A DNA stretch of 64,000 nt from a virus. Positions 8,204-36,164 of the stretch are shown here, piece after piece (within the stretch, counting starts at the first letter, position 1; each line of letters begins with the position of its first letter). The position numbers were made by a program, and so were the translations under genes. The notes beneath the pieces were generated by a model. The model was given only the letters and a program-made list of their open reading frames with translations, searched no databases and was not told the origin of the DNA. The DNA lies in IMG/VR virus record IMGVR_UViG_3300044613_003770, positions 21,304 through 85,303 of that record, one strand, 5' to 3'.

Positions 8204-8257
8204 TTATAAATAGACAAATTTTATTCTTGGGGTAAAGATAATGTGTAAATATTTTTG

Positions 8258-18936: not shown

Positions 18937-19011
18937 GGGCTGTTAGTTAAGTGGATATAACAAGAAACTTCTAATTTTTAGTCGATGGTTCGATTCCATC
19001 ACGGCCTACCA
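18937..19011 (+). tRNA. tRNA-Arg (anticodon UCU)
   Basis: Acceptor GGGCTGT/ACGGCCT, D-arm GTTA/TAAC, anticodon arm AGAAA-CT-TCT-AA-TTTTT, T-arm GATGG-TTCGATT-CCATC, encoded CCA. Confidence 0.92.
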
Positions 19012-19032
19012 ATCTAATAATAAATAAATAAT

Positions 19033-19284
19033 ATGTTTACATTCCTTCAACCAAAAAGACAAGTAGTCATTGAGCATAATATCACCTCAAATATTGATGG
19101 CGAGAGATTCGCGCCAGTAGTTATTGATGGAAGTTATTGGGGCGCAGATTTTGACACCTTCAATGGCGACACTCTTATCCATGATGATGGTGAGTACGGC
19201 AAGATCCCTGTCACTTTCCACCAGACATTCTTAACTACCCGCATGACAGACGAACAACTTCTCCGTAAATACAGAAACATATGA
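19033..19284 (+). CDS. hypothetical protein
   Basis: ORF. Confidence 0.6.
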   Translation: MFTFLQPKRQVVIEHNITSNIDGERFAPVVIDGSYWGADFDTFNGDTLIHDDGEYGKIPVTFHQTFLTTRMTDEQLLRKYRNI

Positions 19285-19508
19285 AACTAATCGTAACAGA
19301 AGAAGATCTCATCCTTGATACCGAACAAGGAACTTACACAATAAAACGCGCCCATGAAGAAGATGAGTGGCATTCAATTACTGAATTTGTTGATTTAAAT
19401 TTTTTCTACGATTCATATGATGATAAATACCATGCCGCAATCTATCTTGTTTTAGAAGGACAAACCCAAACAGATACAGGGTGTGAGATCGAAGTAGAAT
19501 TCACATAA
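19281..19508 (+). CDS. acidic hypothetical protein
   Basis: ATGA overlap. Confidence 0.6.
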   Translation: MKLIVTEEDLILDTEQGTYTIKRAHEEDEWHSITEFVDLNFFYDSYDDKYHAAIYLVLEGQTQTDTGCEIEVEFT

Positions 19509-19512
19509 TGTG

Positions 19513-19594
19513 AAATAATAAACTGCCAAATAATAAAAGGCTAAATAACAAAATAGCAAATAATAAAATAGCAAATAATAAAACGCTTAATAAA
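19513..19594. repeat. about 15-bp tandem repeat (GCAAATAATAAAATA-like, about 5 copies) at the convergence point
   Basis: read directly from sequence. Confidence 0.75.
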
Positions 19595-19626
19595 CCCGTG
19601 GAATTCGACGGGTTAAAGGGGGTCGG

Positions 19627-19671
19627 AACTTACGTTGCGGCGACCCCTACGGGGTCCAATCGCTGTAAGTT
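19627..19671 (-). repeat. 45-bp dyad element, copy 1 (inverted relative to the others)
   Basis: AACTTAC-gttgcggc-GACCCC-TAC-GGGGTC-caatcgct-GTAAGTT. Confidence 0.95.
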
Positions 19672-19698
19672 TTGGATTCAAGGTCGCAATTTGCGACC

Positions 19699-19893
19699 TT
19701 ATTTGATTTCGTAGCGATCAACAATCTCAAGCGTTTCCGTATCAAGATGGACAACAAAACCCTCTCTCCCTTTTTCAAGTGCGCGTTCTTCCGTCTCCCT
19801 GTCAAGATTTGTTTCTTTCCAGCTTGGAGGCAAACCCTTTGAGTGGACAATGATGCGGGATTGATTAAGGAAGTCTAGTTGGTATGCTCTCAT
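19699..19893 (-). CDS. hypothetical protein
   Basis: ATGA-coupled to the upstream small gene. Confidence 0.6.
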   Translation of the reverse strand: MRAYQLDFLNQSRIIVHSKGLPPSWKETNLDRETEERALEKGREGFVVHLDTETLEIVDRYEIK

Positions 19894-20036
19894 ATTTCTT
19901 TTTTTATTTCTTTTTTTATTTCTTTTTTACCATCGCTGCGCACTCGTTTATTCTGAACGCGCTTCCAGTATTTGCGTAAGTGCTTCCACCATTGAACGGT
20001 TGGAACACTTCCTTTGCTTTTTGCTGAACTACTCAT
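19890..20036 (-). CDS. small basic protein (48 aa, WWKHLR motif)
   Basis: manual ORF MSSSAKSKGSVPTVQWWKHLRKYWKR...(KKEI)3; coupled to neighbours at both ends. Confidence 0.65.
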   Translation of the reverse strand: MSSSAKSKGSVPTVQWWKHLRKYWKRVQNKRVRSDGKKEIKKEIKKEI

Positions 20037-20407
20037 TATTTTTGTGCGAGGATTTGTCTGCCTACGATGACAGCATATTTTGCTTTGTCAATGCTTTTGT
20101 TTGAAACGACTTCGTAGAACTTCCCGATGTCTCGATACGGGTTGTAAGAAACCCACATCCTTGGTTGCAGCTTTGTGCTTTCACCAAGTAAGACAAGATC
20201 ACCCTCAACAAACGCATGGACATTTTTCTTTCTTTCGCGCAGGACTCTTTGACGACCTGCTTCTGATACTTTAAAGGTGACATTCTCAAGAGTGACTTTG
20301 CTGGCGTGAAGCCAAACACGCCAGCCCTTTGGAGTTTTTTCTTGGACGGAGAGTTGTTTTCTGTGGAGGTTAAAGTAAAGCCTAACTTTTTTGTTGGTAG
20401 TTTTCAT
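20036..20407 (-). CDS. conserved phage hypothetical protein
   Basis: YFNLH, FKVSEAGRQRVLRERKKNVHAFV, YNPY; own promoter TTGACA-N16-TAGACT near 20483-20510. Confidence 0.8.
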   Translation of the reverse strand: MKTTNKKVRLYFNLHRKQLSVQEKTPKGWRVWLHASKVTLENVTFKVSEAGRQRVLRERKKNVHAFVEGDLVLLGESTKLQPRMWVSYNPYRDIGKFYEVVSNKSIDKAKYAVIVGRQILAQK

Positions 20408-20539
20408 GGGGATGGAGTTGCCGCTCTTATCGGGCGAGCGGCGAGCCGTCTGTCGATATTCTTTGTACTTTTACTTGAGAGAAGTCTAGCAGGGAGAGTA
20501 GATATGTCAACTATTTTTTATTCTTTTTTTTGAATTAAA

Positions 20540-20584
20540 AACTTACACTCATCGGACCCCGTAGGGGTCGCCGCGATGTAAGTT
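20540..20584 (+). repeat. 45-bp dyad element, copy 2
   Basis: AACTTAC-actcatcg-GACCCC-GTA-GGGGTC-gccgcgat-GTAAGTT. Confidence 0.95.
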
Positions 20585-20606
20585 TCCTCACATGCGGCAA
20601 CCTATG

Positions 20607-20810
20607 TCACCAGAGATCGTGTTCGTCAATTAGCTGTTCCGTTCTGTCTACAAACTCTTGAATCAAACCCATAGGAATTTCAAACTTGGTAAGGACATAA
20701 CCATCAAAAACAAGATGCAATGCCACATCGACAATTTTCTTTTCTTCGATTGTTGCATGGACTAGGTAAAGCCCGTATTCAGTTTCGAGAGTAGTTCGAA
20801 AAATTTTCAT
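20607..20810 (-). CDS. hypothetical protein
   Basis: start MKIFRT; TTGACA-N16-TAGCTT upstream. Confidence 0.65.
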   Translation of the reverse strand: MKIFRTTLETEYGLYLVHATIEEKKIVDVALHLVFDGYVLTKFEIPMGLIQEFVDRTEQLIDEHDLW

Positions 20811-20868
20811 CGCTTGCGACAAGCTATCACAAAGAAGACGGCTGTCAAGATTAAAAGAAGTTCGATGT

Positions 20869-21567
20869 TCATGCTGGCTCCAAAACAAAACCCGTTTCAT
20901 CTTTTTTGGCAAGACCTTTTTCTTTAAGCCCGACGATTTTTCCCTTGCCATCGAGAAAGCGGAGATCGGTATCGTCTCCGTCTACCACATCAAAGCCCTT
21001 GAAACTTTGCGGCAAAGACTTGCGGAAAACCATTGCGACATTGCCACCGCTTGCAAGAAAAGCCTCGGCAATGTTTCCATTCGATTCAGAGCGAGAAAAG
21101 GTCAGGTGATAGTTTTTCGGCATCTCACCAGCGAGAAAAGCAGTCATGCGGTCGGGACTTTTCGTGTAGTCGTAAAACTGCACACTTGGGAAAGTAGCGA
21201 AAACATTTAGGCCGTTGCGTTTGATTTTCTCCCATGGCAAGTCACTTGTGAGGTTTAAGCGGAAGCAAGGTGTCATGCCTTTTTTTTCGGCAGACTTCAT
21301 TGACTTTGCAATTTCTTTCCAAAGGTTGGCGAGGAAAGACTGCTTGTCGGTAAAAAACAAACGAGTCTTTGCGATTCGTGCGCGTTGGACGGAAGACATT
21401 GCCCCACGCCCTGCGGTGTTGAGACAAGCGGCGGCGCAACCTTTGCTTGCGTCTTTGCATACATTAAACCCCGAAAGGTTAGCGGGTGCAAGGTGCAAAC
21501 CGTAGGTGATAAAACCCTTCTTCTCTCCCTTGCGCGTCTTGGCGTTTCCTGTGTTGAGTAGTGACAT
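20869..21567 (-). CDS. Gp88-family protein (Cys-cluster, radical-SAM-like)
   Basis: NVCxxASxGCxxACL, RLNxTSD, FYDYTK, NYHLTFS, DGDxTDLRFLD; TTGCCA-N16-TATGCT-N6-ATG. Confidence 0.75.
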   Translation of the reverse strand: MSLLNTGNAKTRKGEKKGFITYGLHLAPANLSGFNVCKDASKGCAAACLNTAGRGAMSSVQRARIAKTRLFFTDKQSFLANLWKEIAKSMKSAEKKGMTPCFRLNLTSDLPWEKIKRNGLNVFATFPSVQFYDYTKSPDRMTAFLAGEMPKNYHLTFSRSESNGNIAEAFLASGGNVAMVFRKSLPQSFKGFDVVDGDDTDLRFLDGKGKIVGLKEKGLAKKDETGFVLEPA

Positions 21568-21675
21568 GGCCAAAGCATAGCATTTGAGGCGAGCATGGCA
21601 AGAGATTTTCTTACAATTTTTTTTCCGATAAATAGTGTTTTTTTCTTGACAAGCCATAAGCCATTCATGCTTAGA

Positions 21676-21720
21676 AACTTACGCCAATCGGACCCCTTCG
21701 GGGTCGCCGCGATGTAAGTT
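21676..21720 (+). repeat. 45-bp dyad element, copy 3
   Basis: AACTTAC-gccaatcg-GACCCC-TTC-GGGGTC-gccgcgat-GTAAGTT. Confidence 0.95.
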
Positions 21721-21732
21721 TTTCCTGTAGAC

Positions 21733-21763
21733 AAAAAAACCCCCGCCCTTTCGGGCGAGGGTT
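21733..21763 (-). terminator. rho-independent terminator
   Basis: AACCCTCGCCC-GAAA-GGGCGGGGGTT followed by a T run on the - strand. Confidence 0.8.
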
Positions 21764-21777
21764 CGTTTGCTTTACGC

Positions 21778-22572
21778 TTACGCTCCAACGACGACGAGCG
21801 TTTCCATTTCCTCCCCCGCATCAGCGGGATCGATTTCGGCCTCGATGGTCGGGCGATGCCCAGCGATGCGGTCAAAGACCGATTGAGCAGTCATCGTGCG
21901 AAACGGCAACTTGGACAGATCACCGCCCTTGAGGTTTTCGGTGATGGAGTTGTAAAGCGTCCAGAGTGTGCCACCCTTGAACTCGTCATGGCGAGGGTTG
22001 CGAAACTCTTGCACGGCGGCGTAAATGTCACGGGCGGGAAACGCTTTGACATCCACAAGGTCGATCAGCAAGTCAGCGGCACGATCACGGGAAATTTCGG
22101 TTTCCTTGTAAAGCTCGATGCGCTTGCCCATGTCGGCCCAATGCGAGACAACGCGAGCGACTGCATCGGAGAGAACGCGAGGAAGGTCAGCGATGATGTT
22201 CGTGGTGTGGCGGCGAGCCAACTTGATGTCGGAAGAGAAGCAAAGATTCTCGCAAACCATCATGCGATTCCCCACGCAAATGCTTGCGGCAAAGGACTTG
22301 TCGTGTGCGTTGCGTAGACCAAGCACGATTTGACGATCAGAACCAGTGATGTCCGCGCCCTTGAGAGCAAACCCGCCAAAGTAGCGTTGACCGCCACGGG
22401 CGAGCGAATGTTCTTCCAGCGACACTTCAAGCCCTGCGCGTCCGATTGCCTCACGAGTCATTTCGACAAGCGAGAAATGCGGGATGGGTTGGAAGCGGTC
22501 AGCGGCTTCGGGAGTCTCAACGCCCATGAGTTGCTCGGCGTTCACTTTGTTTTTTGCGATGATCAGTGACAT
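21778..22572 (-). CDS. DUF932-family protein
   Basis: PIPH, LGLRNAHDKS, G..VCENL.F, RRHT, TLWTLYN..TE. Confidence 0.75.
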   Translation of the reverse strand: MSLIIAKNKVNAEQLMGVETPEAADRFQPIPHFSLVEMTREAIGRAGLEVSLEEHSLARGGQRYFGGFALKGADITGSDRQIVLGLRNAHDKSFAASICVGNRMMVCENLCFSSDIKLARRHTTNIIADLPRVLSDAVARVVSHWADMGKRIELYKETEISRDRAADLLIDLVDVKAFPARDIYAAVQEFRNPRHDEFKGGTLWTLYNSITENLKGGDLSKLPFRTMTAQSVFDRIAGHRPTIEAEIDPADAGEEMETLVVVGA

Positions 22573-22738
22573 ATTGTTTTTTTCTATTGGTTGGAGTTGG
22601 ATGCGCCATCAGCGGCGACAAGGACAAGGTAGCAAAACCAGCGAGTTTGTCCACACATTTTTCATTGTTTTTGTGTTTTTGTTTTTTGAGCCAGGTGTGC
22701 TTTTTTGCTTGACATGGCATAAGTGATTGAGGATCAAA

Positions 22739-22783
22739 AACTTACACCCCCAAGACCCCTTCGGGGTCCGAACCATGTAAGTT
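22739..22783 (+). repeat. 45-bp dyad element, copy 4 (diverged spacers, same lengths)
   Basis: AACTTAC-acccccaa-GACCCC-TTC-GGGGTC-cgaaccat-GTAAGTT. Confidence 0.95.
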
Positions 22784-22835
22784 TTTTAGGCATAAGTTAG
22801 GAAGGGATCGCACTTTGCGACCCCTTCCCGTTATG

Positions 22836-23150
22836 TCAACCCACCCTTGCGAAACTTCTGATTGGATGATCGCCAACTACCTGTGGCACAAAGTCAATCG
22901 TCGGAGAGTCACCGAATTTGTTTTTGTAAGCTCGGAGAAAGGCTGTCAAGTCGCAATCTTCTTCAAGGTAGAAGTTTGATTTGTCTTGGTAGCTGTAGTG
23001 GCTTAACTTTACGCCAAGAGCTTCGACTTCCCGCTTTGGCACTTCAAGCCATCCATGACCTGCGTCAGTATGGAGCTTGAGGATGAGTGTCTTTTGTGGT
23101 TCGCTTTCGAGGTAGCCAACGCCGCCTCCTTCAAGATGCAATGATTTCAT
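22836..23150 (-). CDS. conserved phage hypothetical protein (HxDxGHGWL...YLEEDCD family)
   Basis: HTDAGHGWLEV, SxYSY, YLEEDCD; followed by a hairpin at about 22799-22829. Confidence 0.75.
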   Translation of the reverse strand: MKSLHLEGGGVGYLESEPQKTLILKLHTDAGHGWLEVPKREVEALGVKLSHYSYQDKSNFYLEEDCDLTAFLRAYKNKFGDSPTIDFVPQVVGDHPIRSFARVG

Positions 23151-23285
23151 GTGTGTTAGGTTGAATGAGTTTGATGAGGTAGTCAATTACTTTTTGCGGC
23201 TGCTCATTAAAAAGAGGATGAGAGCCATTCCGATTATCCATGCGATATGCAATGTGTCCATTATGAATGATAAAAACAAGATGTT

Positions 23286-23597
23286 TCATTGTTTGGAATG
23301 TTTGGTGTGAAAACCCACAAAGTCTTCTGCGAGGTTATTGATTAGTTCTTCTACAAAAGCAAAAGGGCTGGCATCGTCCATCGGGTTCAATTCAAACTTG
23401 GAGATTGCTTCCCAAACTTCGATTTGTTTTTGGTCTTCTTGTTGATTGTCTACGCTGTATTCATCAGCGAGCAAAGCAAGAGCGAGCCTTTCGGCACTCC
23501 AATCTTGCGGCCATTTAGAAAGGAAATGACCTGCGGCGATTAGGTATGCTTCGGCGTGAATGGGATTGTTGGTGTCTATGTGAATGTAGTCTTGCAT
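23286..23597 (-). CDS. hypothetical protein
   Basis: TTGACA-N17-TAACCT-N6-ATG. Confidence 0.7.
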   Translation of the reverse strand: MQDYIHIDTNNPIHAEAYLIAAGHFLSKWPQDWSAERLALALLADEYSVDNQQEDQKQIEVWEAISKFELNPMDDASPFAFVEELINNLAEDFVGFHTKHSKQ

Positions 23598-23606
23598 GGC
23601 TGTAGG

Positions 23607-23813
23607 TTAGTCGTTGGCGTGATGATTGTCAAGAATAAGTTGAAGTTCATCGCGGAGTTCTTCCTCGACTTCACTTTCGCCGCCAGAATATGCTTCCGCA
23701 AGCTCTAATGCTTGTTGGGCAATGTCTTTGAGCTGTTCAATTGTGTTTAGTAGTTCTTCGATTGTGGTCATGTCGATATGTGGGCAACAATTGTGGTTTG
23801 GTTTGTCTGTCAT
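23607..23813 (-). CDS. acidic hypothetical protein
   Basis: start MTDKPN; 3' end contains the next promoter. Confidence 0.6.
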   Translation of the reverse strand: MTDKPNHNCCPHIDMTTIEELLNTIEQLKDIAQQALELAEAYSGGESEVEEELRDELQLILDNHHAND

Positions 23814-23826
23814 GTTGTTTTGTTGG

Positions 23827-24168
23827 TTAGTTTGTTGGGATGAATCTACGGGCGTGAATGTTAAGATTGGAACACCATTTTTTCCAGTTTTTGCCATGAA
23901 AGTCATTGCGGCCATTTTTCTTGTGTGTGCCAAAGAATTTTGTTCTTTCGGTTATGTCAAGAGCGTGTGCGAGTTCATGCAAGAAAACTTCAGAAAACAA
24001 ATGGAAGTTTTGTAGGATTTGATTTGAAAGCTCAATTCTTTTTTCCTCTATACGATAGCAACCCAATCTTCTTTTTGTGTTTGTCCAAAGGACTGGAATG
24101 TGGGTCATGTTATGCTGACGCAAGGTCAAGCGGATGTATTGTTCGGCTTCTTGGTGAGTGATTTTCAT
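23827..24168 (-). CDS. SprT-like zinc metalloprotease domain protein
   Basis: RLGxY, IELS, LHELAHA, HGxxWK. Confidence 0.8.
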   Translation of the reverse strand: MKITHQEAEQYIRLTLRQHNMTHIPVLWTNTKRRLGCYRIEEKRIELSNQILQNFHLFSEVFLHELAHALDITERTKFFGTHKKNGRNDFHGKNWKKWCSNLNIHARRFIPTN

Positions 24169-24212
24169 GCGGGGAAAGTTTGGGGGCTTTCGCCCCCTAT
24201 GTCAACTATTTT

Positions 24213-24695
24213 TTAGACATCAGCAGGAATTTCTTCGTCCTCGTCGTATTCGACAAAGCTAAAGTTTTCTTTTGCAAACTCTATGACATCAGCATCATCG
24301 ACTTGGTTGTCGTCAATTTGACCTTCGGAGATGATAGCAGTCCCAGCAAACCAGCAACCGCCCTCAAAGTAGTCGAGCGTAAATTGATCGTTTGGAAACA
24401 TTTCAGACAGAGCGGCAATCGCTTGAAGTGGTGGACTCCAAGCAGTCATGAATGGAGCTTGAAAGTCGCAATCTTCAGAGATGAGTTGATCAGCAACTTC
24501 GCGTTGCTCTTGTTCACTCAAGTCCCATTTAGTTCCCCAGTTTTCAAGTCTCCAATTATACCATCCATTGCCCTCAAGCAATTCTGGTGGTGTGGGTTTG
24601 ATTTTCTCAAAAGAAAGACCATTTTCTTTTAGATAGCTTTCCAATTCTGGAGAGCAATCCATGACCGACAATTTATTTTCGTTCCAGTTAGGCAT
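24213..24695 (-). CDS. DUF1281/YubB-like (Api92 ferredoxin-like domain) protein
   Basis: MPNWxxN, WYxWRxxNWGTKWD, FxTAWSPP; TTGACT-N17-TACATT-N6-ATG. Confidence 0.8.
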   Translation of the reverse strand: MPNWNENKLSVMDCSPELESYLKENGLSFEKIKPTPPELLEGNGWYNWRLENWGTKWDLSEQEQREVADQLISEDCDFQAPFMTAWSPPLQAIAALSEMFPNDQFTLDYFEGGCWFAGTAIISEGQIDDNQVDDADVIEFAKENFSFVEYDEDEEIPADV

Positions 24696-24722
24696 GGCGG
24701 CAATGTAGGTTAGTGGTTGGGG

Positions 24723-24896
24723 TTAGTCAAGATTTTTTATTAGTGTGTGGGAGTATCTCAAGACATCTCCACAATCATCACAAGGTTCTCCGTTGTCTTG
24801 ATAAAAGTCAGGAGAGACATGGACTTCTTCATTTGTTTCATCATTGATCCAAACATGAAGAACATTTTCATCGTTTATTTTGATCCAATCAGACAT
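24723..24896 (-). CDS. small hypothetical protein (57 aa, PCDDCG)
   Basis: manual ORF; TTGACT-N17-CATACT-N6-ATG. Confidence 0.65.
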   Translation of the reverse strand: MSDWIKINDENVLHVWINDETNEEVHVSPDFYQDNGEPCDDCGDVLRYSHTLIKNLD

Positions 24897-24927
24897 GGCT
24901 TTAGTATGTGTTATTTTTTGGGGTTAG

Positions 24928-25179
24928 TCAATAGGTTTTTGCAAGTAAAACAAGAGGCTTCAATGTGATTGGCTTTTCAGCAACATAAAAGAAAAAACCA
25001 TATTCCAAAACCTCAATGTCGCCATCGACTTCGGCAAGTGAAACATAGTCATCGCCATGATTGTCGGCAACGAATGGGCCTTCATCATCATGCCCGATAA
25101 AGTAAAGCGTATCGTTTAGATCGACAGCATAAGCGTCACTGAGTGCTTCGTGTAGTTGTTCAAGTGTGGTTGTTTGCAT
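24928..25179 (-). CDS. acidic hypothetical protein
   Basis: TTGACT-N16-CATACT-N6-ATG. Confidence 0.7.
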   Translation of the reverse strand: MQTTTLEQLHEALSDAYAVDLNDTLYFIGHDDEGPFVADNHGDDYVSLAEVDGDIEVLEYGFFFYVAEKPITLKPLVLLAKTY

Positions 25180-25205
25180 GGCAGTAGTATGTGTTATTTT
25201 CGGGG

Positions 25206-25346
25206 TTAGTCAACAAGAAATCTGCGCTTCCATTGTGATTCTTGCACCTGCTTATCAAGCCAAGATTGTTGTTCAAAGATGCGCGATCCGTAAATTGATT
25301 TGCGGTCGCGTGTGAATAGTGACAGGATGTGGTTGATGATTTGCAT
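25206..25346 (-). CDS. small hypothetical protein (46 aa)
   Basis: manual ORF MQIINHILSLF...RRFLVD; TTGACA-N16-TAAGTT-N6-ATG. Confidence 0.6.
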   Translation of the reverse strand: MQIINHILSLFTRDRKSIYGSRIFEQQSWLDKQVQESQWKRRFLVD

Positions 25347-25510
25347 GGGGGAAACTTAACACAAAGACGCGAGGTGTCAAATTTTATTTTCAGAATAAAC
25401 TGCAATTTTCTTCTTGACAAATCAACACTAGCAAATAGCAAAATAGTAAATAGCAAATCAGTTAATAGCTAATAGACTACAGGCGCGGCTGTAAGTCATT
25501 GAGGATTAAA

Positions 25511-25555
25511 AACTTACACCAATCGGACCCCGTAGGGGTCGCCGCGATGTAAGTT
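25511..25555 (+). repeat. 45-bp dyad element, copy 5
   Basis: AACTTAC-accaatcg-GACCCC-GTA-GGGGTC-gccgcgat-GTAAGTT. Confidence 0.95.
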
Positions 25556-25576
25556 CTTGGCGACCAATGGGTTATG

Positions 25577-25855
25577 TTATTCCTCGTCGCAATCCTCAAT
25601 CGTATCCGATTGCGACACTTCGGGATTGAACGGGCAAGCTTCCAAGACTCCCCAGCATTCTTTCCCTTGGAAGGTGAAGGATACACCCCACACAACCCAA
25701 TTGTATTGCAACTCATCGACAATCTCGCGAAATTGCAGATCGTCAACCTTGCTTGTTGCTATCCTTTGGGGAATGGCAGTGAGGGCGGCGGCTTCCGCGA
25801 GAGCGGCGGCGTATTCTTCGGGCGAAACTTCGGAGGCGAGGTAGGTGATGGACAT
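25577..25855 (-). CDS. acidic hypothetical protein (single-gene module)
   Basis: TTGCGT-N16-TAACTT-N6-ATG; N-terminus paralogous to 27250..27387. Confidence 0.7.
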   Translation of the reverse strand: MSITYLASEVSPEEYAAALAEAAALTAIPQRIATSKVDDLQFREIVDELQYNWVVWGVSFTFQGKECWGVLEACPFNPEVSQSDTIEDCDEE

Positions 25856-25953
25856 GGGAATAAGTTAATCGATTTTAAGAGAAACGCAACAAAAAAGTCA
25901 TTTTTTATTTTTTTTATTTTTACTTGACAAATTGTAACTTATTCATTTTCAAA

Positions 25954-25998
25954 AACTTACACCTATCGGACCCCGTAGGGGTCGCGGCGGTGTAAGTT
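25954..25998 (+). repeat. 45-bp dyad element, copy 6
   Basis: AACTTAC-acctatcg-GACCCC-GTA-GGGGTC-gcggcggt-GTAAGTT. Confidence 0.95.
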
Positions 25999-26065
25999 AT
26001 TCATTTTCAAGCGGTTATGATCGCGCCCCCACCACAGAGGCGCGATCTTTTATCCACCCACAAAA

Positions 26066-26230
26066 TTATTCTTGCAATGCGTTTTTGAAGCACCCTGCCC
26101 AAGTCAACGCGAGGCAAAGCCAAAAAACAATAAAGTTTAGATCGTGTGGCACAATGTCATACACTCTCACAATCGAAAAAATTGCAATGTGTAAAGAAGA
26201 AAAGAAAAGACAAAGAGCGGCAGATTTCAT
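26066..26230 (-). CDS. small 2-TM membrane protein (54 aa)
   Basis: manual ORF with two hydrophobic segments. Confidence 0.5.
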   Translation of the reverse strand: MKSAALCLFFSSLHIAIFSIVRVYDIVPHDLNFIVFWLCLALTWAGCFKNALQE

Positions 26231-26291
26231 TTTTTTTTATTTTTAAGGTTGAAAGGTTGGGCCTTTTAGTGTGATGCCCAGCACCGATTTT

Positions 26292-26573
26292 TTATTGAGC
26301 GGCAAAGGTCTTTTCGATTTTCCCGCATTTGAAATGGCGGACGGCTTCGGGTTTGAAGCTGAACCAGCCTTGATTGTTTCGATTGATTGCAGAGAAGTAT
26401 CCAGCCGCCTTCAATCCATCAGTTCCAGCAGAGCCAGTTCCTTTGATCAAACCAATGTATTTGTCCTTGGCGTTGATTTGACGAATCGTGCCATCCTTCT
26501 TTTCAAAGGTGATCGAAAAGAATTTTCCTTTCGTGGCGGCGATCAGTTGTGCGATTTCGTTTTGTGTGGTCAT
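26292..26573 (-). CDS. SH3/Sm-like beta-barrel protein (WYL_2-like)
   Basis: FFSITFEKKDGTIR...GWFSF pattern. Confidence 0.65.
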   Translation of the reverse strand: MTTQNEIAQLIAATKGKFFSITFEKKDGTIRQINAKDKYIGLIKGTGSAGTDGLKAAGYFSAINRNNQGWFSFKPEAVRHFKCGKIEKTFAAQ

Positions 26574-26584
26574 GTTTTTGTTGG

Positions 26585-26719
26585 TTATTGTTTTGAGATC
26601 ATTTCCCGTTCCATCTCGTCGATTTCTTCGGGGGTCATGGTATCCTCGATTTCATGCGCGGCATGGAACATGGCGAGCAATTCAAGGGAATCAGCGTGGG
26701 CGAGTTGGTCAATGGACAT
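26585..26719 (-). CDS. small acidic protein (44 aa)
   Basis: manual ORF; TTGCTA-N16-TAACTT-N6-ATG. Confidence 0.6.
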   Translation of the reverse strand: MSIDQLAHADSLELLAMFHAAHEIEDTMTPEEIDEMEREMISKQ

Positions 26720-26760
26720 GAGAGAAAGTTAGTTGATTTTGAAAGAATAGCAAGAAAAAA

Positions 26761-26955
26761 TTAACCGATTTTCAAATTTTCAACTCGGCTAGATGCAACG
26801 GTATTGACATCGCCGCAGTATGGGTCGCGGTAAATGATGATGAACGCGCCGTCGAGAGTGTCGCGGTCGGTGACGCTTCCCGTCAAATTCATTCCGCAGT
26901 AGGTGAATTCAACAAGGGTATTTAAGCGGGGGCGGGTGGTGGTCGTGTTGGACAT
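26761..26955 (-). CDS. hypothetical protein, paralog of 28152..28346
   Basis: TTGCGT-N16-TAACTT-N6-ATG; GSVTDRxTLDG shared. Confidence 0.75.
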   Translation of the reverse strand: MSNTTTTRPRLNTLVEFTYCGMNLTGSVTDRDTLDGAFIIIYRDPYCGDVNTVASSRVENLKIG

Positions 26956-27100
26956 GTAAGAAAGTTATCACAACTAACTCGAAACGCAACAAAAAAAACA
27001 AAAATCTTTTTCGCCCAGTTGCAATTTTTTTCTTGACAAATAGAATGGGGGGGCTATTGGGGGGGCTGAAGGGAAGATTCATAACTCATTGAAAATCAAA

Positions 27101-27145
27101 AACTTACACCCATCGGACCCCTTCGGGGTCGCCGCGATGTAAGTT
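27101..27145 (+). repeat. 45-bp dyad element, copy 7
   Basis: AACTTAC-acccatcg-GACCCC-TTC-GGGGTC-gccgcgat-GTAAGTT. Confidence 0.95.
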
Positions 27146-27249
27146 TCACGGCAACCCCTCACCACTACATTTGCGCCGATATTATGGCAACCACAAGCCA
27201 AATCGCGGCATTTATTCCAATCAAAATTCCAAGTATTTCTTTCATGTTT

Positions 27250-27387
27250 TTATCCTTCCTTTTCGATGTGTTCAAGATACTCCGCGAACGCGAGTTCGGC
27301 GGCTTCCGCGAGGACGGCATCACGCTCCTCGATGGAAATTTCACTGGCAAAGTAGGTGGCGGCGGCGGTAGTGAGGTCGTTGGACAT
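27250..27387 (-). CDS. small acidic protein (45 aa)
   Basis: manual ORF MSNDLTTAAATYFASEISIEERDAVLAEAAEL...; TTGCGT-N16-TAACTT-N6-ATG. Confidence 0.65.
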   Translation of the reverse strand: MSNDLTTAAATYFASEISIEERDAVLAEAAELAFAEYLEHIEKEG

Positions 27388-27493
27388 GCAAGAAAGTTAG
27401 CATGGGATTCAGATAACGCAACAAAAAAGTGTTTTTTATTTATTTTTTTTTGTGTGTTTTTTCTTTACTTTTTGCAATTCGTTGAGCGTAAGA

Positions 27494-27538
27494 AACTTAC
27501 AGCTATCGGACCCCGTAGGGGTCGCGGCGGTGTAAGTT
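27494..27538 (+). repeat. 45-bp dyad element, copy 8
   Basis: AACTTAC-agctatcg-GACCCC-GTA-GGGGTC-gcggcggt-GTAAGTT. Confidence 0.95.
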
Positions 27539-27661
27539 TTTGATTTCCAATGACTTACAACGGCAGCGGCAATGTAGTTATGCTATGCACTATGTGCCAT
27601 ACTACTACAAGCGTAGTAGTAAAGCACACAGCGTTTGCAATGATGTCTTGTAGTTCTTCAC

Positions 27662-27889
27662 TCATACAGACAAGTCGCAGTCTTCTTCTAGAAATTCCAT
27701 TGCGGCTTCTTGTGCGTAGTCAAGTAGCTCACTCATGGGAGTCATGCTGTCTGCTTCTTCTATCATCTCTTCCAATGTGTCCACGTGATCACATAGAAGA
27801 GCGGTATCAGGTAGATCATCGAGTGACAAGCCTGTGATGGCGTAGACTTGTGCGTTGATCATCTTTCGTGCTTTGTTTCGTGCGCTCAT
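27662..27889 (-). CDS. acidic hypothetical protein (GLSLDDLPD motif)
   Basis: ORF. Confidence 0.7.
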   Translation of the reverse strand: MSARNKARKMINAQVYAITGLSLDDLPDTALLCDHVDTLEEMIEEADSMTPMSELLDYAQEAAMEFLEEDCDLSV

Positions 27890-27951
27890 GGTGTGTGTGT
27901 TGTTATTGGTTGATTGGTGTAGTGTCTTTCATATTATTATGCTTGTGTGTG

Positions 27952-28131
27952 TTAGTTATGCTTAACATAGGATTGAAGATGTGCAAGCGCATACATAGTC
28001 GCGCCAAAGGTTAAAAAACATATAGCGTCGAACACTTCGCTTCGTCCTCCGTAGATACAGAAGGCGCAAAGGCTAAAGACAGGCGACATGGTGATGATGG
28101 CAGAGCCAAGGATTGTGATGATGTGTTTCAT
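27952..28131 (-). CDS. small membrane protein (59 aa)
   Basis: manual ORF with two hydrophobic segments. Confidence 0.5.
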   Translation of the reverse strand: MKHIITILGSAIITMSPVFSLCAFCIYGGRSEVFDAICFLTFGATMYALAHLQSYVKHN

Positions 28132-28151
28132 TTTTTTTCTATGTGTTATGT

Positions 28152-28346
28152 TTACCAGACTTTGATGATTTCAATTTGATTCGAACCGATAAAAGCGATG
28201 TCGTTGCAAAGATCGCGATAGATGATGACAAAGCCGCCGTCGAGCGTGTTCCTATCGGTGACGCTACCGCAGAAGCGACGACCTTCATAGCGAAAGTCTA
28301 CAGTAGAGTTAATGCGTGGGCGGGTGGTGGTAGTTGTGTTGGACAT
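28152..28346 (-). CDS. hypothetical protein, paralog of 26761..26955
   Basis: TTGTGT-N16-TAACTT-N6-ATG. Confidence 0.75.
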   Translation of the reverse strand: MSNTTTTTRPRINSTVDFRYEGRRFCGSVTDRNTLDGGFVIIYRDLCNDIAFIGSNQIEIIKVW

Positions 28347-28458
28347 GGGAGAAAGTTAGCAGATGAGAGAGGGAACACAAGAAAAAAATCATTTATTTTT
28401 TTTTACGAAACTGCAATTTTTTTCTTGACAAATAGATATGCGGGGGGGTTTGGGGGGG

Positions 28459-28646
28459 CGCAAATAGCAAATGAATAAATAGCAAATTATCAAATAGCAA
28501 ATAGCAAATGAATAAATAGTAAATAGATTAGCGATTGGGTAATGATTAGCGTGGCGGTAATCATTAGCGTGGCAGTCATGTATTCGCGTGGAATCCTTAG
28601 TGTGGAGGTAATCATTAGCGTGGAACAAATCATTAGCGTGGAACAT
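28459..28646. repeat. short repeat cluster: AAATAGC runs followed by about 5 copies of ATCATTAGCGTGG
   Basis: read directly from sequence. Confidence 0.75.
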
Positions 28647-28735
28647 AGGTTTCGGGGGTGGCGGTCGCGTAAGTTTTCGGGGTGGGTCTGGGCATAAGTT
28701 GGGCGGGGTGGTTTCCCACCCCGCCTTGCCTTGGG

Positions 28736-28933
28736 TCATGCCTTGCGCCACGAGCGCAAGACTTGCGCCGCATAGTCGCGGGGGACATTAAAACTCTTCC
28801 CGTCTTTGTAAATGCCCGCGCCATTGGGAGTCATGACATAGTTTCGGATCGTGAAGAGGTGGAAATTTCCACAAGGGGAAAAATGGGAGTTCGTGCGAAA
28901 ATTGCCTTTTCTGAGATAGCTTTTGATTTTCAT
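28736..28933 (-). CDS. small basic hypothetical protein
   Basis: ORF co-directional with the array. Confidence 0.55.
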   Translation of the reverse strand: MKIKSYLRKGNFRTNSHFSPCGNFHLFTIRNYVMTPNGAGIYKDGKSFNVPRDYAAQVLRSWRKA

Positions 28934-28988
28934 GAGTCTGATTTTTTAAGGTTGGCAGGGCCGCCCTTGCGGCCCTGCTTGTCGTGGT

Positions 28989-29333
28989 TTAGCCCTTGGC
29001 GATACCTTGCCAAGTGGCGCGGGTTGCGGTTTGTCCTTCAACCCTCCCAAGAGCGGCGGCCTTGCAAAGGGTCTGGAATTTTTCGACCGCTTTTTTTTCA
29101 GCGGCGGACATAAAGGAAAGGGCGGATTCCTTGTCAGCATTGGAAACACTCGCGCTTGCCTTCGTGGTGATTTCCTCGCCGACGATTTCCAGCGCAAGCG
29201 TGAAGCTGTAGGCGTGACCATCGGGACTTGCTCCCATAGCGAGAGCGATTTCGCCAATGGTGGATGTTCCTTTGATGGGAAGCGCGATCTTGCTCGCGCT
29301 GGGCTTCGTGGTGGTGGTGGTGGTGGTGGTCAT
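28989..29333 (-). CDS. hypothetical protein with poly-Thr N-terminus; first gene of the - strand block
   Basis: MTTTTTTTTKPSASK...; followed by a GC hairpin at about 28955-28978. Confidence 0.65.
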   Translation of the reverse strand: MTTTTTTTTKPSASKIALPIKGTSTIGEIALAMGASPDGHAYSFTLALEIVGEEITTKASASVSNADKESALSFMSAAEKKAVEKFQTLCKAAALGRVEGQTATRATWQGIAKG

Positions 29334-29621
29334 GTGATGGAGTCGCTCGCGGCGACAAAGGAAAGATGCCACAAGCGGGAAAAATTGAAAGATTTTTCTT
29401 CGATTTTCTGAAAAAAGTTTTTTCAACGAAATGCGAAATTTTCTTGACAGCCTCCCCCCATTTCTCGGAAAAATTGCAAACGAACATCGCAGCCATCGGG
29501 GGGGGGACACTTTTTTCAATCTCCCCTAAAAATTACAATATTAGTATTTTCGTTGGCCTCAAAAAAAATCCGCCACTTAATTTCAAAAAACCTAATAAAA
29601 TATTTAGTGTAATCATTAAGT

Positions 29622-30485
29622 ATGATATATAGAGATTTACCTATTTTTGTTGGCACAGCAAATCAAAATCCAAATACAATAAATAATAACTATTATTTGA
29701 TGGCATCTCAGGTATCTATAGATATGTCCGCTGGCGGTCAAGCCAAAAGAAAAATAAATCAATCAATAAATCAATCCGACCAATTTACTCATCCAAACCC
29801 TTTAGTTTGCAGAGTTAGCTTTCAATCTTATATACCAGGAAGTGATATAGAAGGATTTGTAATACCAGATTTATCATGGGCCGCGAAAATAATATTCACT
29901 CAGGCTACTGGAGATAATTATCATGCAATAAAAATTGGAGAAAGTATTTTTGATAAATGCTACTTAAGTAATTATACAGTAAGCATAGATCCTTTTAGAC
30001 CTGTCCAGCTTACAGCTGAGTTTATATGTAATGATCCACCGACTGGGTATGGCATATCAGAAAAAATCAATGGTGTAGATTCTTTCGTCGGTTCTATAAG
30101 TTTTGCTGATAATATTATTCATGGTCATACATGCAATGTAATTGGGGCTAATAATATAGTTAGTGAAATTCAATCCTCAATCAAATATCAAGTAACATGC
30201 AATAGAACGCCAGTATATGGCATTGGTTCAATTATGCCATCATCAATGATTTTAGATGAAATAGAAAGACAAATGGATATAAGTTCTACTGATATATCAT
30301 CAATAATTAATCAAGAAGGCGCGAAATTAACTTCTCCAGTTACTGTGGCGTTAAAACATAGCAACAGTTCAATTACTGCTTATTTAAATATGAATGCAGG
30401 ATCAAAAATATTGTCCCAAAAAATACAAATGCAAGAAGGAGATTCTTTGATGACTGAAGTATCAATTAAAGAGTTTTTAGTGTAA
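29622..30485 (+). CDS. putative virion protein (tail-tube-like fold)
   Basis: YLxxYxV and RxxVYxIGSxxP patterns shared with 57997, 59789 and 42966; GTGTAA upstream. Confidence 0.55.
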   Translation: MIYRDLPIFVGTANQNPNTINNNYYLMASQVSIDMSAGGQAKRKINQSINQSDQFTHPNPLVCRVSFQSYIPGSDIEGFVIPDLSWAAKIIFTQATGDNYHAIKIGESIFDKCYLSNYTVSIDPFRPVQLTAEFICNDPPTGYGISEKINGVDSFVGSISFADNIIHGHTCNVIGANNIVSEIQSSIKYQVTCNRTPVYGIGSIMPSSMILDEIERQMDISSTDISSIINQEGAKLTSPVTVALKHSNSSITAYLNMNAGSKILSQKIQMQEGDSLMTEVSIKEFLV

Positions 30486-33396: not shown

Positions 33397-34348
33397 ATGC
33401 AAAGAGTGTAATCAGGAATTTCCTGGTTTAAAAAACCTCCATACGCATATCAAAAAACATGATATGTTTCTTGGGGACTATTATGTAAAACATTTTCAAA
33501 GAAAAAATAAATTAACGGGCGAATTATTACCATTTAAAAATTATGATGATTATTTTGAAAAAGATTTCTCTCAACCAAAACAACTTCAAGAATGGTGTGA
33601 AAAAGCATCTTTTATGGATGTTAAAGAATATATTATCGAATTAATGGATAGGAGAATCAAGGCAAAGAATCTTAATTCAGGTTTAAGTTCTCTTGAGCTT
33701 TGGACTGCTGGTTTGCCTGATATTGACATGTATAAAAAATACTTTGGGAGTTATACTGATGCATGTAAAAAATGTTTAATCGAACCAATGTTTAATGGAA
33801 AATTACCCAAAGAGTTTTGGAATGATTATTCAAACATAAAAATTCTAATTGATACTAGAGAACAAAAACCATTATGGTTTAATAAATCAGAGATTTTAAA
33901 ATTAGATATAGGAGATTATGCTGTTTCTGGAGATAAATATGATTATACTTATGTAGACCGCAAATCTTTCAATGACTTCTGTGGTACAGTTACATCATCT
34001 TACAATAGATTTGTTAAAGAGTTGGAGAGGTGCAGGAGTTTAGGCTGTTATTTATTTATTGTTATAGAAGCACCCCTTCATAAGATGGATGAATACAACA
34101 AAAATAGTTATAAAAAATTCAACCTTAATTATGTTTTTCATAACATGAGGCAGCTACAAAGAGATTACAGCAATTGTTGTCAATTTGTCTTTAGTGGCTC
34201 TAGAGGTTTGAGTGCAGAATTAATACCAAAATTATTGATACTCGGAAAATCCTTATGGAAGACTGATATGCAGTATTTTTGGTCAAAAAGAATAGAAAAA
34301 TATGGCTTGGATAACAGGAGTACAAAAGAGGAGAAAAAGATTTCCTAA
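33386..34348 (+). CDS. C2H2 zinc finger + ERCC4 (XPF/Mus81-type) nuclease domain protein
   Basis: CKEC...HxHxxxH; ILIDTREQKP, LDIGDY, VDRKSxxDF, VIE. Confidence 0.8.
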   Translation: MSFKCKECNQEFPGLKNLHTHIKKHDMFLGDYYVKHFQRKNKLTGELLPFKNYDDYFEKDFSQPKQLQEWCEKASFMDVKEYIIELMDRRIKAKNLNSGLSSLELWTAGLPDIDMYKKYFGSYTDACKKCLIEPMFNGKLPKEFWNDYSNIKILIDTREQKPLWFNKSEILKLDIGDYAVSGDKYDYTYVDRKSFNDFCGTVTSSYNRFVKELERCRSLGCYLFIVIEAPLHKMDEYNKNSYKKFNLNYVFHNMRQLQRDYSNCCQFVFSGSRGLSAELIPKLLILGKSLWKTDMQYFWSKRIEKYGLDNRSTKEEKKIS

Positions 34349-36164
34349 AATTAATGAAGAATTGATGAATAAAGAAGGCTTCTTGGAAGATACAGAAGCT
34401 AAAATATTATTTTATAAATTTTTAAGAGAAAACCCATCATTTGCTTCAGAATTAATTACTGGAGTTAAATTATTTCCATTCCAACATATGTCAATTAAAG
34501 CTATGATGGAAACTGATTACTTTTTAGGCATATGGAGTCGTGGTATGAGTAAATCTTTCTCAACTGCAATTTTTGCAGTATTAGATGCCATTTTACACCA
34601 AGGCATTCATATAGGTATCATTAGTAAATCTTTTAGACAAGCTAAAATGATTTTTAGAAAAATAGAAGAAATTTCTCGCAGCCCAAAAGCTGTATTTCTA
34701 TCCCAAGCAATCACGAGGGTTTCCAAAAATAATGATGAATGGGTTATGGAAATTGGTCAAAGCAGAATAACGGCGCTGCCTTTGGGTGATGGCGAAAAAC
34801 TGCGCGGCTTCCGTTTCCAAAGAATGATTATTGATGAGCTTTTATTAATGCCAGAAAAAGTATTAAATGAGGTTATTATGCCGTTCTTGTCTGTTGTTGA
34901 GAATCCAACCGAAAGACAAGAAATACATGATCTTGAAACAAAAATGATTGCTCAAGGCAAAATGACAGAAGAAGATAGAAAACAATGGCCAAACAATAAA
35001 ATAATTGGATTATCTTCCGCATCTTATAAATTCGAATATTTATACAAGCTATATTCTCAATACGAATCATTGATTCTTAATCCTAACGATCAAGATGGCG
35101 CTCATAGAGTTATAATGCATTTTAGTTATGATTGCGCTCCAGAGCAATTATATGATCAAAATTTAATTAATCAATCTAAAGCTACAATGAGTCAATCTCA
35201 ATTTGATAGAGAATTTGGAGCTATGTTTACTGATGATAGTTCTGGTTACTTTAAAGTAAGCAAAATGGCGGCTTGTACTATAGCTGATGGAGAAGGTCAG
35301 TGCGTTGAGGTTATAGGCGATTCTAAGTCAGAATATATACTCGCAATAGACCCGTCTTGGTCTGAAAGTGAAAGCTCTGATGATTTTGCTATGATTTTAA
35401 TTAAATTAGATAAAGATAAACCCAAAGGTACTGTAGTTCATAGTTATGCAATGTCTGGAACAAATTTAAAAAGTCATATTATTTATTTACATTATTTATT
35501 AACTTATTTTAATATTGTGAGTATAGTTGCCGACTATAATGGCGGTGTTCAATTTATTAATTCATGCAATGAAAGCGATATATTTAAACAATATAATTTA
35601 AAGTTAGATGCTTTTGATGCAGATTTTGATAATATTCAAGAATACGATAAAAATCTTAGAGATGCAAGAAATCAATACAATTTGCAAAGCAAAAAAATAG
35701 TTTATTTAAGAAAACCAAGTTCTCAGTGGATTAGATACGCAAATGAATCTCTACAATCAGCATTCGATCATAAACGAATTTTATTTGCTGGAGCTGCTAT
35801 GGATGACAATTATAATATACAGCGCAAATCAAACATACCAATTAAAGAATTAAAATTTTTAAGAAACAATGAAGAAGAACAAGGTGTTTCAGCAAAAATG
35901 ATTGATTTTGTTGAACATCAAAAAGATATGATGGATCTTATTAAAGTTGAATGTGCTTTAATTCAAGTAACAACTACGGCGCAAGGTACACAAAGTTTTG
36001 ATCTGCCTCATAATTTAAAAAAACAAAGAGGAGCCGATAAAGCTAGAAAAGACTCTTATTCTGCTTTAGTATTAGGAAATTGGATGATACCAATTCATTT
36101 CGACATGATGAATCAGAAAGCTGAAAATATACAAACCACATTTACTCCAATGTTTATAAATTAA
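34302..36164 (+). CDS. terL: terminase large subunit
   Basis: Q-motif LFPFQ, Walker A SRGMSKS, LRGFRFQRMIIDE, nuclease LAIDPS and RKDSYSAL. Confidence 0.88.
   Translation: MAWITGVQKRRKRFPKINEELMNKEGFLEDTEAKILFYKFLRENPSFASELITGVKLFPFQHMSIKAMMETDYFLGIWSRGMSKSFSTAIFAVLDAILHQGIHIGIISKSFRQAKMIFRKIEEISRSPKAVFLSQAITRVSKNNDEWVMEIGQSRITALPLGDGEKLRGFRFQRMIIDELLLMPEKVLNEVIMPFLSVVENPTERQEIHDLETKMIAQGKMTEEDRKQWPNNKIIGLSSASYKFEYLYKLYSQYESLILNPNDQDGAHRVIMHFSYDCAPEQLYDQNLINQSKATMSQSQFDREFGAMFTDDSSGYFKVSKMAACTIADGEGQCVEVIGDSKSEYILAIDPSWSESESSDDFAMILIKLDKDKPKGTVVHSYAMSGTNLKSHIIYLHYLLTYFNIVSIVADYNGGVQFINSCNESDIFKQYNLKLDAFDADFDNIQEYDKNLRDARNQYNLQSKKIVYLRKPSSQWIRYANESLQSAFDHKRILFAGAAMDDNYNIQRKSNIPIKELKFLRNNEEEQGVSAKMIDFVEHQKDMMDLIKVECALIQVTTTAQGTQSFDLPHNLKKQRGADKARKDSYSALVLGNWMIPIHFDMMNQKAENIQTTFTPMFIN

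Follow-up and report, generated by a model that had tools for sequence, protein, structure and literature searches.

Phage accessory islands show the fastest turnover of host-takeover and anti-defence genes, and the exchange of their cassettes is poorly understood outside the T4 group. In T4-type phages, G/C-stem loops combined with host-type promoters lie between accessory genes, and these elements have been described as promoter-early stem-loops, or PeSLs (Arbiol et al., 2010, PMC2839356; Comeau et al., 2014, PMC4122927). We analysed a repeated dyad in a 64,000-nt stretch of viral DNA (positions 21,304 to 85,303 of IMG/VR virus record IMGVR_UViG_3300044613_003770; hereafter the window), where it recurs between the small genes of a GC-rich island. 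By analogy with PeSLs, our tentative reading, held with somewhat less than even confidence, is that the dyad belongs to a PeSL-like boundary-and-exchange element between self-promoted modules in a clade of uncultured freshwater siphoviruses. The PeSL-like repeat probably also acts as an insulator.

The dyad has the pattern AACTTAC-N8-GACCCC-N3-GGGGTC-N8-GTAAGTT over 45 nt, and its eight copies, first reported in an initial annotation made from the sequence alone, were confirmed at the positions listed in Table 1. Outer arms of the form AACTTAC-N(10-40)-GTAAGTT were matched eight times against an expectation of 0.02, and none of 100 shuffled sequences reached eight. No further copy was found elsewhere in the 85-kb record, and all eight lie within the island. 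Two 27-nt palindromes, GTAAGT-nn-TTGA-nnn-TCAA-nn-ACTTAC, flank the core, and the inner arm of each is the outer arm of the core. The element is an oriented composite palindrome of ~100 bp, made up of two 27-bp palindromes and a 31-bp GC-rich dyad with shared arms. Because flank and core share an arm, GTAAGT has two possible partners, the ACTTAC on the far side of the core and the distal one of the flank. The downstream flank, in gene direction, occupies core_start-20 to core_start+6 in copies 3-8, and the upstream flank was found in the window in copies 5 (25549-25575), 6 (25992-26018) and 8. When loci were oriented by the adjacent structural gene, with the island upstream of that gene, every copy had the same orientation; copy 1 of the window, inverted at the island end, follows the converging strand. 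Read against the minus strand of copies 2-8, the plus strand of copy 1 agreed at 11 of 16 spacer positions; the opposite orientation gave 4 agreements. The spacers of the terminal copy in the complete relative G002 are too symmetric to assign it an orientation.

The element always lay after the end of a gene and before the next promoter. Beyond each element we found an A/T-rich stretch and then a promoter, at a variable distance of about 30 to 150 nt from the element; a TTGACA-16-TAGACT promoter, for example, lies 32 nt downstream of copy 2 on the minus strand. The predicted transcription start fell 40 to 200 nt past the loop in about half of the copies. Most island genes have their own TTGnnn-16/17-TAnnnT promoter, ending 6-13 nt 5' of the ATG, with some further upstream, and the leaderless geometry was confirmed at several island gene starts. 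The eight elements split ~25 island genes into 7-8 modules; since there are only eight elements for this number of genes, they bound modules and not single genes. A separate classical terminator hairpin often precedes the element (at 21737-21764 before copy 3, for instance), and another, at 19680-19700, follows copy 1. The proposal of insulation, in which the element would fence adjacent transcription units apart, fits an orientation that is fixed with transcription and a position between gene end and next promoter.

Comparison of relatives showed cassettes swapped, gained or lost at the elements or close to them. Between copies 5 and 6, the insert differs from phage to phage (392 nt in the window, 935 nt in relative L027 and 1096 nt in relative L007), and identity among the three breaks at the element edges. 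We then scored where homology blocks of 200 nt or more end in three groups of relatives, counting an end when it fell within 50 nt of an element. Element zones contained 135 of 446 block ends, 2.4 times the 55.8 expected, in counts that are not independent; after duplicates were collapsed, they contained 62 of 266 ends against an expected share of ~12.5%. Four clean one-sided junctions, a small sample, were scattered over positions -31 to +44 relative to the loop. One left/right spacer quartet passed the four-gamete test among 108 distinct cores, and different copies combine left and right spacers in a reticulate way. By this comparison, the elements are preferred but not sole exchange junctions, without a fixed crossover point. 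The copies place ~100 bp of common, directly oriented sequence on either side of unrelated cargo. In the mechanism that we propose, this sequence would serve cassette exchange, and the hairpin-prone centre may fold transiently during replication or under supercoiling. Such folding could provoke template switching or breaks, and these would explain the preferred exchange point, the homogenised copies within lineages and the flips of the loop described below.

The locus shares with PeSLs a repeated G/C-run stem-loop and host-type promoters among the small accessory genes of a hyperplastic region. As with PeSLs, the insertions, deletions and replacements by which relatives differ lie at the repeats, and the exchange points are variable, as homology-driven recombination predicts. 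The carrier here is a siphovirus-like lake phage, whereas PeSLs belong to T4-type myoviruses, and the element is a much larger composite whose inner stem is invariant and whose loop is strictly GWA/TWC. Its promoter does not lie at a fixed distance. A PeSL joins a stem-loop that acts as a terminator to a strong sigma-70-like early promoter, and neighbouring PeSL copies recombine to form mini-circles. The phage element goes beyond the PeSL in its composite palindrome, its invariant centre and its loop rule.

Several observations weigh against a PeSL-like boundary element. The invariance of GACCCC/GGGGTC beside varying spacers exceeds the need of homology-driven exchange and suggests a sequence-specific reader. 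Some 70-77% of homology-block ends fall outside the elements, and one population variant in a lake metagenome joins promoter repeats (25895 to 26768), not dyads. A recombination protein was detected in just one relative (a RecA-like gene in the complete genome G001). Elements of types B and C lack a U-run behind the hairpin, a separate classical terminator is present in many cassettes, and a simple consensus terminator scan does not flag the elements as intrinsic terminators. Phage-encoded RecT and YqaJ were looked for and none was found. Of four sequencing runs, all available as contigs, the RNA run yielded only short gene-body pieces of 90-95% identity, and the DNA assemblies break at the repeats.

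Table 1. Positions of the core dyads, of the palindromes flanking copy 8 and of the island, in window coordinates.
Feature	Position	Strand	Remarks
Core, copy 1	19627..19671	+	inverted relative to the others; island end; faces converging plus-strand genes
Core, copy 2	20540..20584	-	23 nt past the stop of gene 20607-20951
Core, copy 3	21676..21720	-	follows the DUF932 gene's terminator (21737-21764) and precedes the GP88 gene's leaderless promoter (21574-21601)
Core, copy 4	22739..22783	-	spacers ATGGTTCG/TTGGGGGT; ATCG/CGAT pairing absent
Core, copy 5	25511..25555	-	bounds, on its downstream side, a cassette slot with different contents in different relatives
Core, copy 6	25954..25998	-	upstream boundary of the variable slot that copy 5 bounds downstream
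Core, copy 7	27101..27145	-	dyad match
Core, copy 8	27494..27538	-	dyad match
Downstream flank (gene direction), copy 8	27474..27500	-	shares an arm with core 8
Upstream flank (gene direction), copy 8	27532..27558	-	shares an arm with core 8
GC-rich island	19690..29520	-	42-47% G+C vs ~30% in the genome; ~25 small genes

The wider family was collected in a first scan of viral contigs with both spacers and the loop left free, which returned 27 loci on ~15 contigs, each with arrays of elements. Islands of relatives were retrieved via the adjacent structural gene by protein alignment, and further scans covered two complete genomes and metagenome contigs. The collection comprised the 108 distinct oriented cores mentioned above, which come from about 30 contigs of related lake phages, and, counted with flanks, 139 distinct cores. 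The habitat of all these phages is lake or freshwater, as far as the source samples of the carrying contigs show. The complete relatives G001 (133.8 kb) and G002 (146.9 kb) carry the inner motif 10 and 9 times, respectively, all in one ~10-kb island. No cultured relative was found, the best terminase match being 27% identical, to Bacillus and Clostridium phages. Among 185,579 prokaryotic species genomes there were no phage-type copies, the only hit being an unrelated Phaeodactylibacter locus. The latter is a single-copy hairpin, TTAC-N8-GACCCC-ATT-GGGGTC-N8-GTAA, conserved in four Phaeodactylibacter assemblies (L065-L068, L111); it was rejected as a relative of the phage element as its loop (ATT) and arms differ.

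The spacers proved lineage-specific and asymmetric. In gene direction they read ATCGCGGC/CGATNGGT in the window lineage, ATCGACGC/GTTTTGGC in a second lineage and AGCGTTGG/CTCTCGGC in a third, and the fourth lineage has several forms. The pair just outside the arms is A-T in the window lineage and mostly G-C elsewhere, so that AAC...GTT ends are not family-wide; they are limited to the window lineage, and the other lineages have GAC...GTC or CAC...GTG. Sister lineages without the GACCCC core carry analogous arrays at the same genomic place as the GACCCC-type arrays. L039 and L040 keep both flank palindromes around a 23-nt core (27+23+27, a 77-bp form), which is usually GGCGCGG-GGG-CCGCGCC, sometimes the self-complementary GCGGGG/CCCCGC and sometimes decayed. 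In L043 and L047, TCTAACAGATTTTTAT arms flank an asymmetric G-rich centre, and L049 has TTTTACGC arms around a centre that occurs in both orientations. Because these lineages hold analogous arrays with other palindromes, the architecture of AT-rich palindromic arms and a GC-rich centre between cassettes is, by comparison of the lineages, older than any single sequence. The distribution of versions indicates concerted evolution, in which each lineage would have homogenised its own element.

Tandem elements, two or three with an exact 96-nt period and no gene between them, were seen in four relatives (L025 2802-3038, L022 4771-4911, L038 1240-1380, G001 64148-64258). They suggest duplication or unequal exchange, since simple deletion between direct repeats would leave one copy.

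We next turn to the centre of the element. The inner stem GACCCC/GGGGTC was invariant over the 108 distinct cores. Although the loop had been left free in the searches, it was GAA, GTA, TTC or TAC in all 139 distinct cores, and the only other loop in the unfiltered list belongs to an unrelated locus of bacterial type. Every core reads CCCC-GAA/GTA-GGGG on one of its strands, which is the C-GNA-G mini-hairpin motif. The initial annotation had proposed a GNA-type triloop on either strand, with loops GTA/TAC or GAA/TTC; this held for all eight window copies, and in the family it narrows to G-W-A in 139 of 139 cores. On the sense strand of the 108 cores the counts were TTC 38, TAC 26, GTA 22 and GAA 22, with no strand preference. 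All four loops occur in every lineage, also against identical spacers, and the flip is independent of the oriented spacers. The outer arms vary at one position: they read ACTTAC/GTAAGT in 62 cores, one arm is changed in 25 (giving a C.C or G.G mismatch) and both are changed and compensated in 10. This compensation offers at most weak support for pairing.

The annotation had also described an attC-like bulged hairpin, in which ATCG and CGAT in the spacers pair, and had read it as an extruded structure. Its spacer details were accurate, with ATCG/CGAT in copies 2, 3, 5 and 7, a CGGT wobble in copies 6 and 8, ATTG/CAAC in copy 1 and loss of the pairing in copy 4. Besides its C-G to T-A double change, copy 1 has an A.C in place of the terminal A-T pair on the plus strand. 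When folded with DNA parameters, the bulged form was the minimum-energy structure on both strands of copy 3 and on the plus strand of copies 2, 5 and 7, with energies of -11.5 to -12.5 kcal/mol and z-scores of -3 to -4.6. In copy 2 it beat the open internal-loop centroid by only ~1.4 kcal/mol, and copies 6 and 8 favoured other pairings.

Across the family, the bulged fold was not conserved. The ATCG/CGAT helix paired in 52.5% of cells over 81 copies and 50.7% over the 108 cores, no better than in-register pairing (52.2%), and it is confined to the window lineage because the spacers are lineage-specific. The compensatory change seen in copy 1 remained a single case that did not generalise. Covariation in the larger alignment was weak: the bulged structure exceeded shuffles only in double-changed-cell counts and score, and the covariation score of a three-hairpin structure came to 52/500 in the shuffle comparison. 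RNAalifold on the 81 copies returned only the inner stem, which shows no covariation because it is invariant. The flank helices paired in 71-89% of cells (82-89% for the downstream flank), and none of their covariation went beyond shuffles. Thus, of the hairpin reading, a centre that is a hairpin-prone perfect dyad was retained, and the attC likeness and the conserved bulged fold were not.

That the centre may matter as folded DNA is argued most strongly by the loop rule: C-GNA-G is extra-stable, and a symmetric dimer bound to the duplex would not require one strand to read G..A and the other T..C. Only GNA triloops closed by C-G give the extra-stable DNA mini-hairpin (PMC13037366), and d(GCGNAGC) mini-hairpins occur in the early promoters of phage N4 and in the G4/ssiA priming sites (PMC13037366, PMC4496689). 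The centre might accordingly be read by structure, extruding from C-GWA-G as a hairpin or cruciform on which a structure-specific factor (primase, resolvase, nuclease or polymerase) would act, an alternative that we regard as unlikely. A cruciform that folds both strands predicts the lack of strand preference in the loop, and such indifference fits a two-strand process, either a cruciform or template switching in either direction. The flanks are AT-rich, and the hairpins GGCGCGG/CCGCGCC and GCGGGG/CCCCGC of the sister lineages differ compensatorily. This reading is weakened by the lack of stem covariation within the GACCCC lineage, by outer-stem C.C/G.G mismatches in 25 of 97 common-arm cores against the 10 compensated ones, and by a bulged helix that is not conserved. 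In addition, a 6-bp GC stem is a poor spontaneous extruder and no candidate reader protein was found. The middle loop base is always A or T, though GCA and GGA are at least as stable as GTA (PMC13037366), and the loop rule is therefore not explained by stability alone.

The comparison with N4 goes as far as a C-GNA-G triloop on a short GC stem. N4-type promoters carry the GNA-type triloop on the template strand upstream of early genes, where a virion RNA polymerase reads it. In the phage element, unlike in N4, GNA can occupy either strand, the middle base is restricted to A or T, and the distance to a start site is not fixed. An N4-type hairpin promoter was rejected, given that the GNA strand is not fixed, the distance to the gene is variable and the promoters are of the sigma-70 type. 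The only giant open reading frame of the window encodes the tape-measure protein and not a virion polymerase like that of N4; the rest of the incomplete record was not searched for one. The junction element of this clade, to which the GACCCC-GWA-GGGGTC core with its shared arms is specific, combines an invariant 15-bp centre, a strand-blind mini-hairpin loop rule and a core that is replaced while the flanks persist. Should its centre be read in folded form, the element would connect hairpin biology with the modular evolution of phages; if not, the elements would be well-characterised PeSL-like boundaries outside the myoviruses, and could help to delimit cassettes in metagenomic phages.

An equally unlikely alternative is that the element is read as a duplex, with the 27-bp palindromes, and possibly the GACCCC dyad, binding dimeric or DNA-bending proteins such as host IHF or a phage regulator. 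Such proteins would together assemble either a nucleoprotein boundary or, upstream of the cassette promoters, a site that activates or silences them. In favour of this, conservation is at the level of primary sequence, without covariation; the arms vary independently, and the flanks persist in lineages in which the core has been replaced or has decayed. In the flanks, four fixed sites of the element score at least 8/9 against the IHF consensus WATCAANNNNTTR in 26-48 of the 81 copies, with 6-18 of these matches perfect. Perfect matches are not enriched in the window, where there are 10 against 11.4 expected and only 2 lie at elements, and no HU/IHF gene encoded by the phages was found. The variable distance between element and promoter is unlike that of an operator, and a symmetric dimer leaves unexplained why the loop is G..A or T..C and never a symmetric pair.

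RNase III sites lie between the early genes of T7. A comparable RNA-level signal on the sense strand, which could terminate transcription between early genes, undergo RNase III-type processing or stabilise 3' ends, seems somewhat less probable than either of the two preceding alternatives. The orientation of the element follows transcription, the inverted copy 1 included. On the sense strand, copies of the window lineage have 3-5 U in a row after the hairpin; such a run is missing in element types B and C, and separate classical terminators often precede the element. The downstream flank shows 130 G.U against 9 A.C cells on the sense strand and the upstream flank shows the reverse, 41 against 72. 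We did not count the G.U excess in favour of RNA structure because it stems from few lineage-wide variants and because of the reverse bias upstream. The sense loops mix GAA, GUA, UUC and UAC, for which there is no RNA rationale, a permissive E-value search of 19000-30000 against Rfam gave no family match, and RNAalifold, as noted, kept the inner stem only.

Of similarly low probability is an analogue of the integron that works without a recombinase. Here, the invariant C-GWA-G centres of oriented palindromic junctions would be extruded and processed by a putative structure- or sequence-specific factor, and targeted breaks or template switches would drive the capture and shuffling of self-promoted accessory cassettes clade-wide.

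Site-specific recombination proper, whether integron-like, IS200/IS605-like or REP/RAYT-like (REP, repetitive extragenic palindromic), is close to refuted and in our judgement very improbable. In its favour are the co-oriented imperfect dyads arrayed between small genes, their asymmetric unpaired spacers and the empty tandem units of 96-nt period in some relatives. The two complete genomes, with 9-10 copies each, gave no Phage_integrase, Y1_Tnp or Resolvase match, and the controls were positive. More specifically, PF00589 (tyrosine recombinase) had no match in G000 or in the complete G001 and G002, with all 14 controls positive, and PF01797 (Y1 transposase) had none in G000-G003. The attC R''/R' boxes have the consensus RYYYAAC ... 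GTTRRRY; in the window lineage T-runs, not purines, follow GTT, and neither attC R boxes nor R-box-like ends are conserved. Recombination at attC uses a folded single strand, in which extrahelical bases and an unpaired central spacer give strand choice (PMC6393395). The phage element resembles attC in its co-oriented imperfect dyads between cassettes and in its asymmetric unpaired central spacers. It differs in having no counterpart of IntI, of the conserved boxes or of the fixed crossover of attC; its bulges are not conserved, its cassettes have their own promoters where those of integrons are promoterless, its exchange junctions are scattered and its loop shows no strand bias. Among the 185,579 prokaryotic species genomes scanned there is only the unrelated Phaeodactylibacter locus. 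Taken together, the results on recombinases, R boxes, bulges, promoters and junctions exclude the attC/integron, IS200/IS605 and REP readings, and the integron analogy of the initial annotation falls with them.

RIP elements carry an IHF site, and Correia elements are likewise palindromic repeats of bacteria. Like these repeats, the bacterial REP and interspersed mosaic elements (BIMEs) and other repeats that resemble miniature inverted-repeat transposable elements (MITEs), the phage element is intergenic, ~100 bp and palindromic, may hold IHF-like sites and is prone to concerted evolution. In contrast to them, it is confined to one phage island and absent from bacterial genomes, it comes without a RAYT or transposase in the phage, and its presence/absence case is a replacement and not a clean insertion. 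In this sole case, L027 has at 2269 a full boundary element and a different promoter at the place matching window 24169-24212; the whole regulatory region is replaced, with no target duplication, and MITE-type insertion was rejected. Window 24169-24212 is itself a very compact intergenic region, in which the spacer of a TTGACA promoter holds the GC hairpin GGGGGCGAAAGCCCCC that trails the previous gene.

The source record is an 85.3-kb IMG/VR virus record with an estimated completeness of 68%. The window contains siphovirus-type genes, among them a terminase (34302-36164) and a 3286-aa tape-measure protein (48135-57995). Island genes with a family match are GP88, DUF932, L5 gp82-like, DUF1281_C/Api92-like, SprT-like and, weakly, WYL_2, and the others have none. 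The island is accessory and probably early.

Other repeated sequences accompany the island. A T-run with a CTTGACA box, antisense to the island genes, was seen at window 21648-21654, 22709-22715, 25922-25928 and 27031-27037, and also in L008, L019, L039 and L043, even beside different palindromes. Backward firing of a promoter into the core was rejected, as a canonical -10 lies 16-18 nt behind CTTGACA in only ~9 of 76 copies. Phased 15-nt tandem units of the AAATAATAAAANNGC / GCAAATAGCAAAATAG type occur at window 19491-19595, 25416-25484 and 28460-28498, adjoining copy 1, copy 5 and the region at ~28.46 kb, and lie 5' of minus-strand promoters. They resemble phased A/T tracts and could form curved DNA. 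On the plus strand, G7 and G6-7 runs (GGGGGGGCTATTGGGGGGG, GCGGGGGGGTTTGGGGGG) at window 27045-27070 and 28436-28460 adjoin repeated TTTCTTGACAAATAG boxes, and these are conserved in L027, L010 and L031. Away from the island, the tape-measure protein includes a chitinase-class-I-like segment, and window 8255-12334 encodes a 1359-aa multi-domain glycosyltransferase (GT25 and GT47/exostosin).

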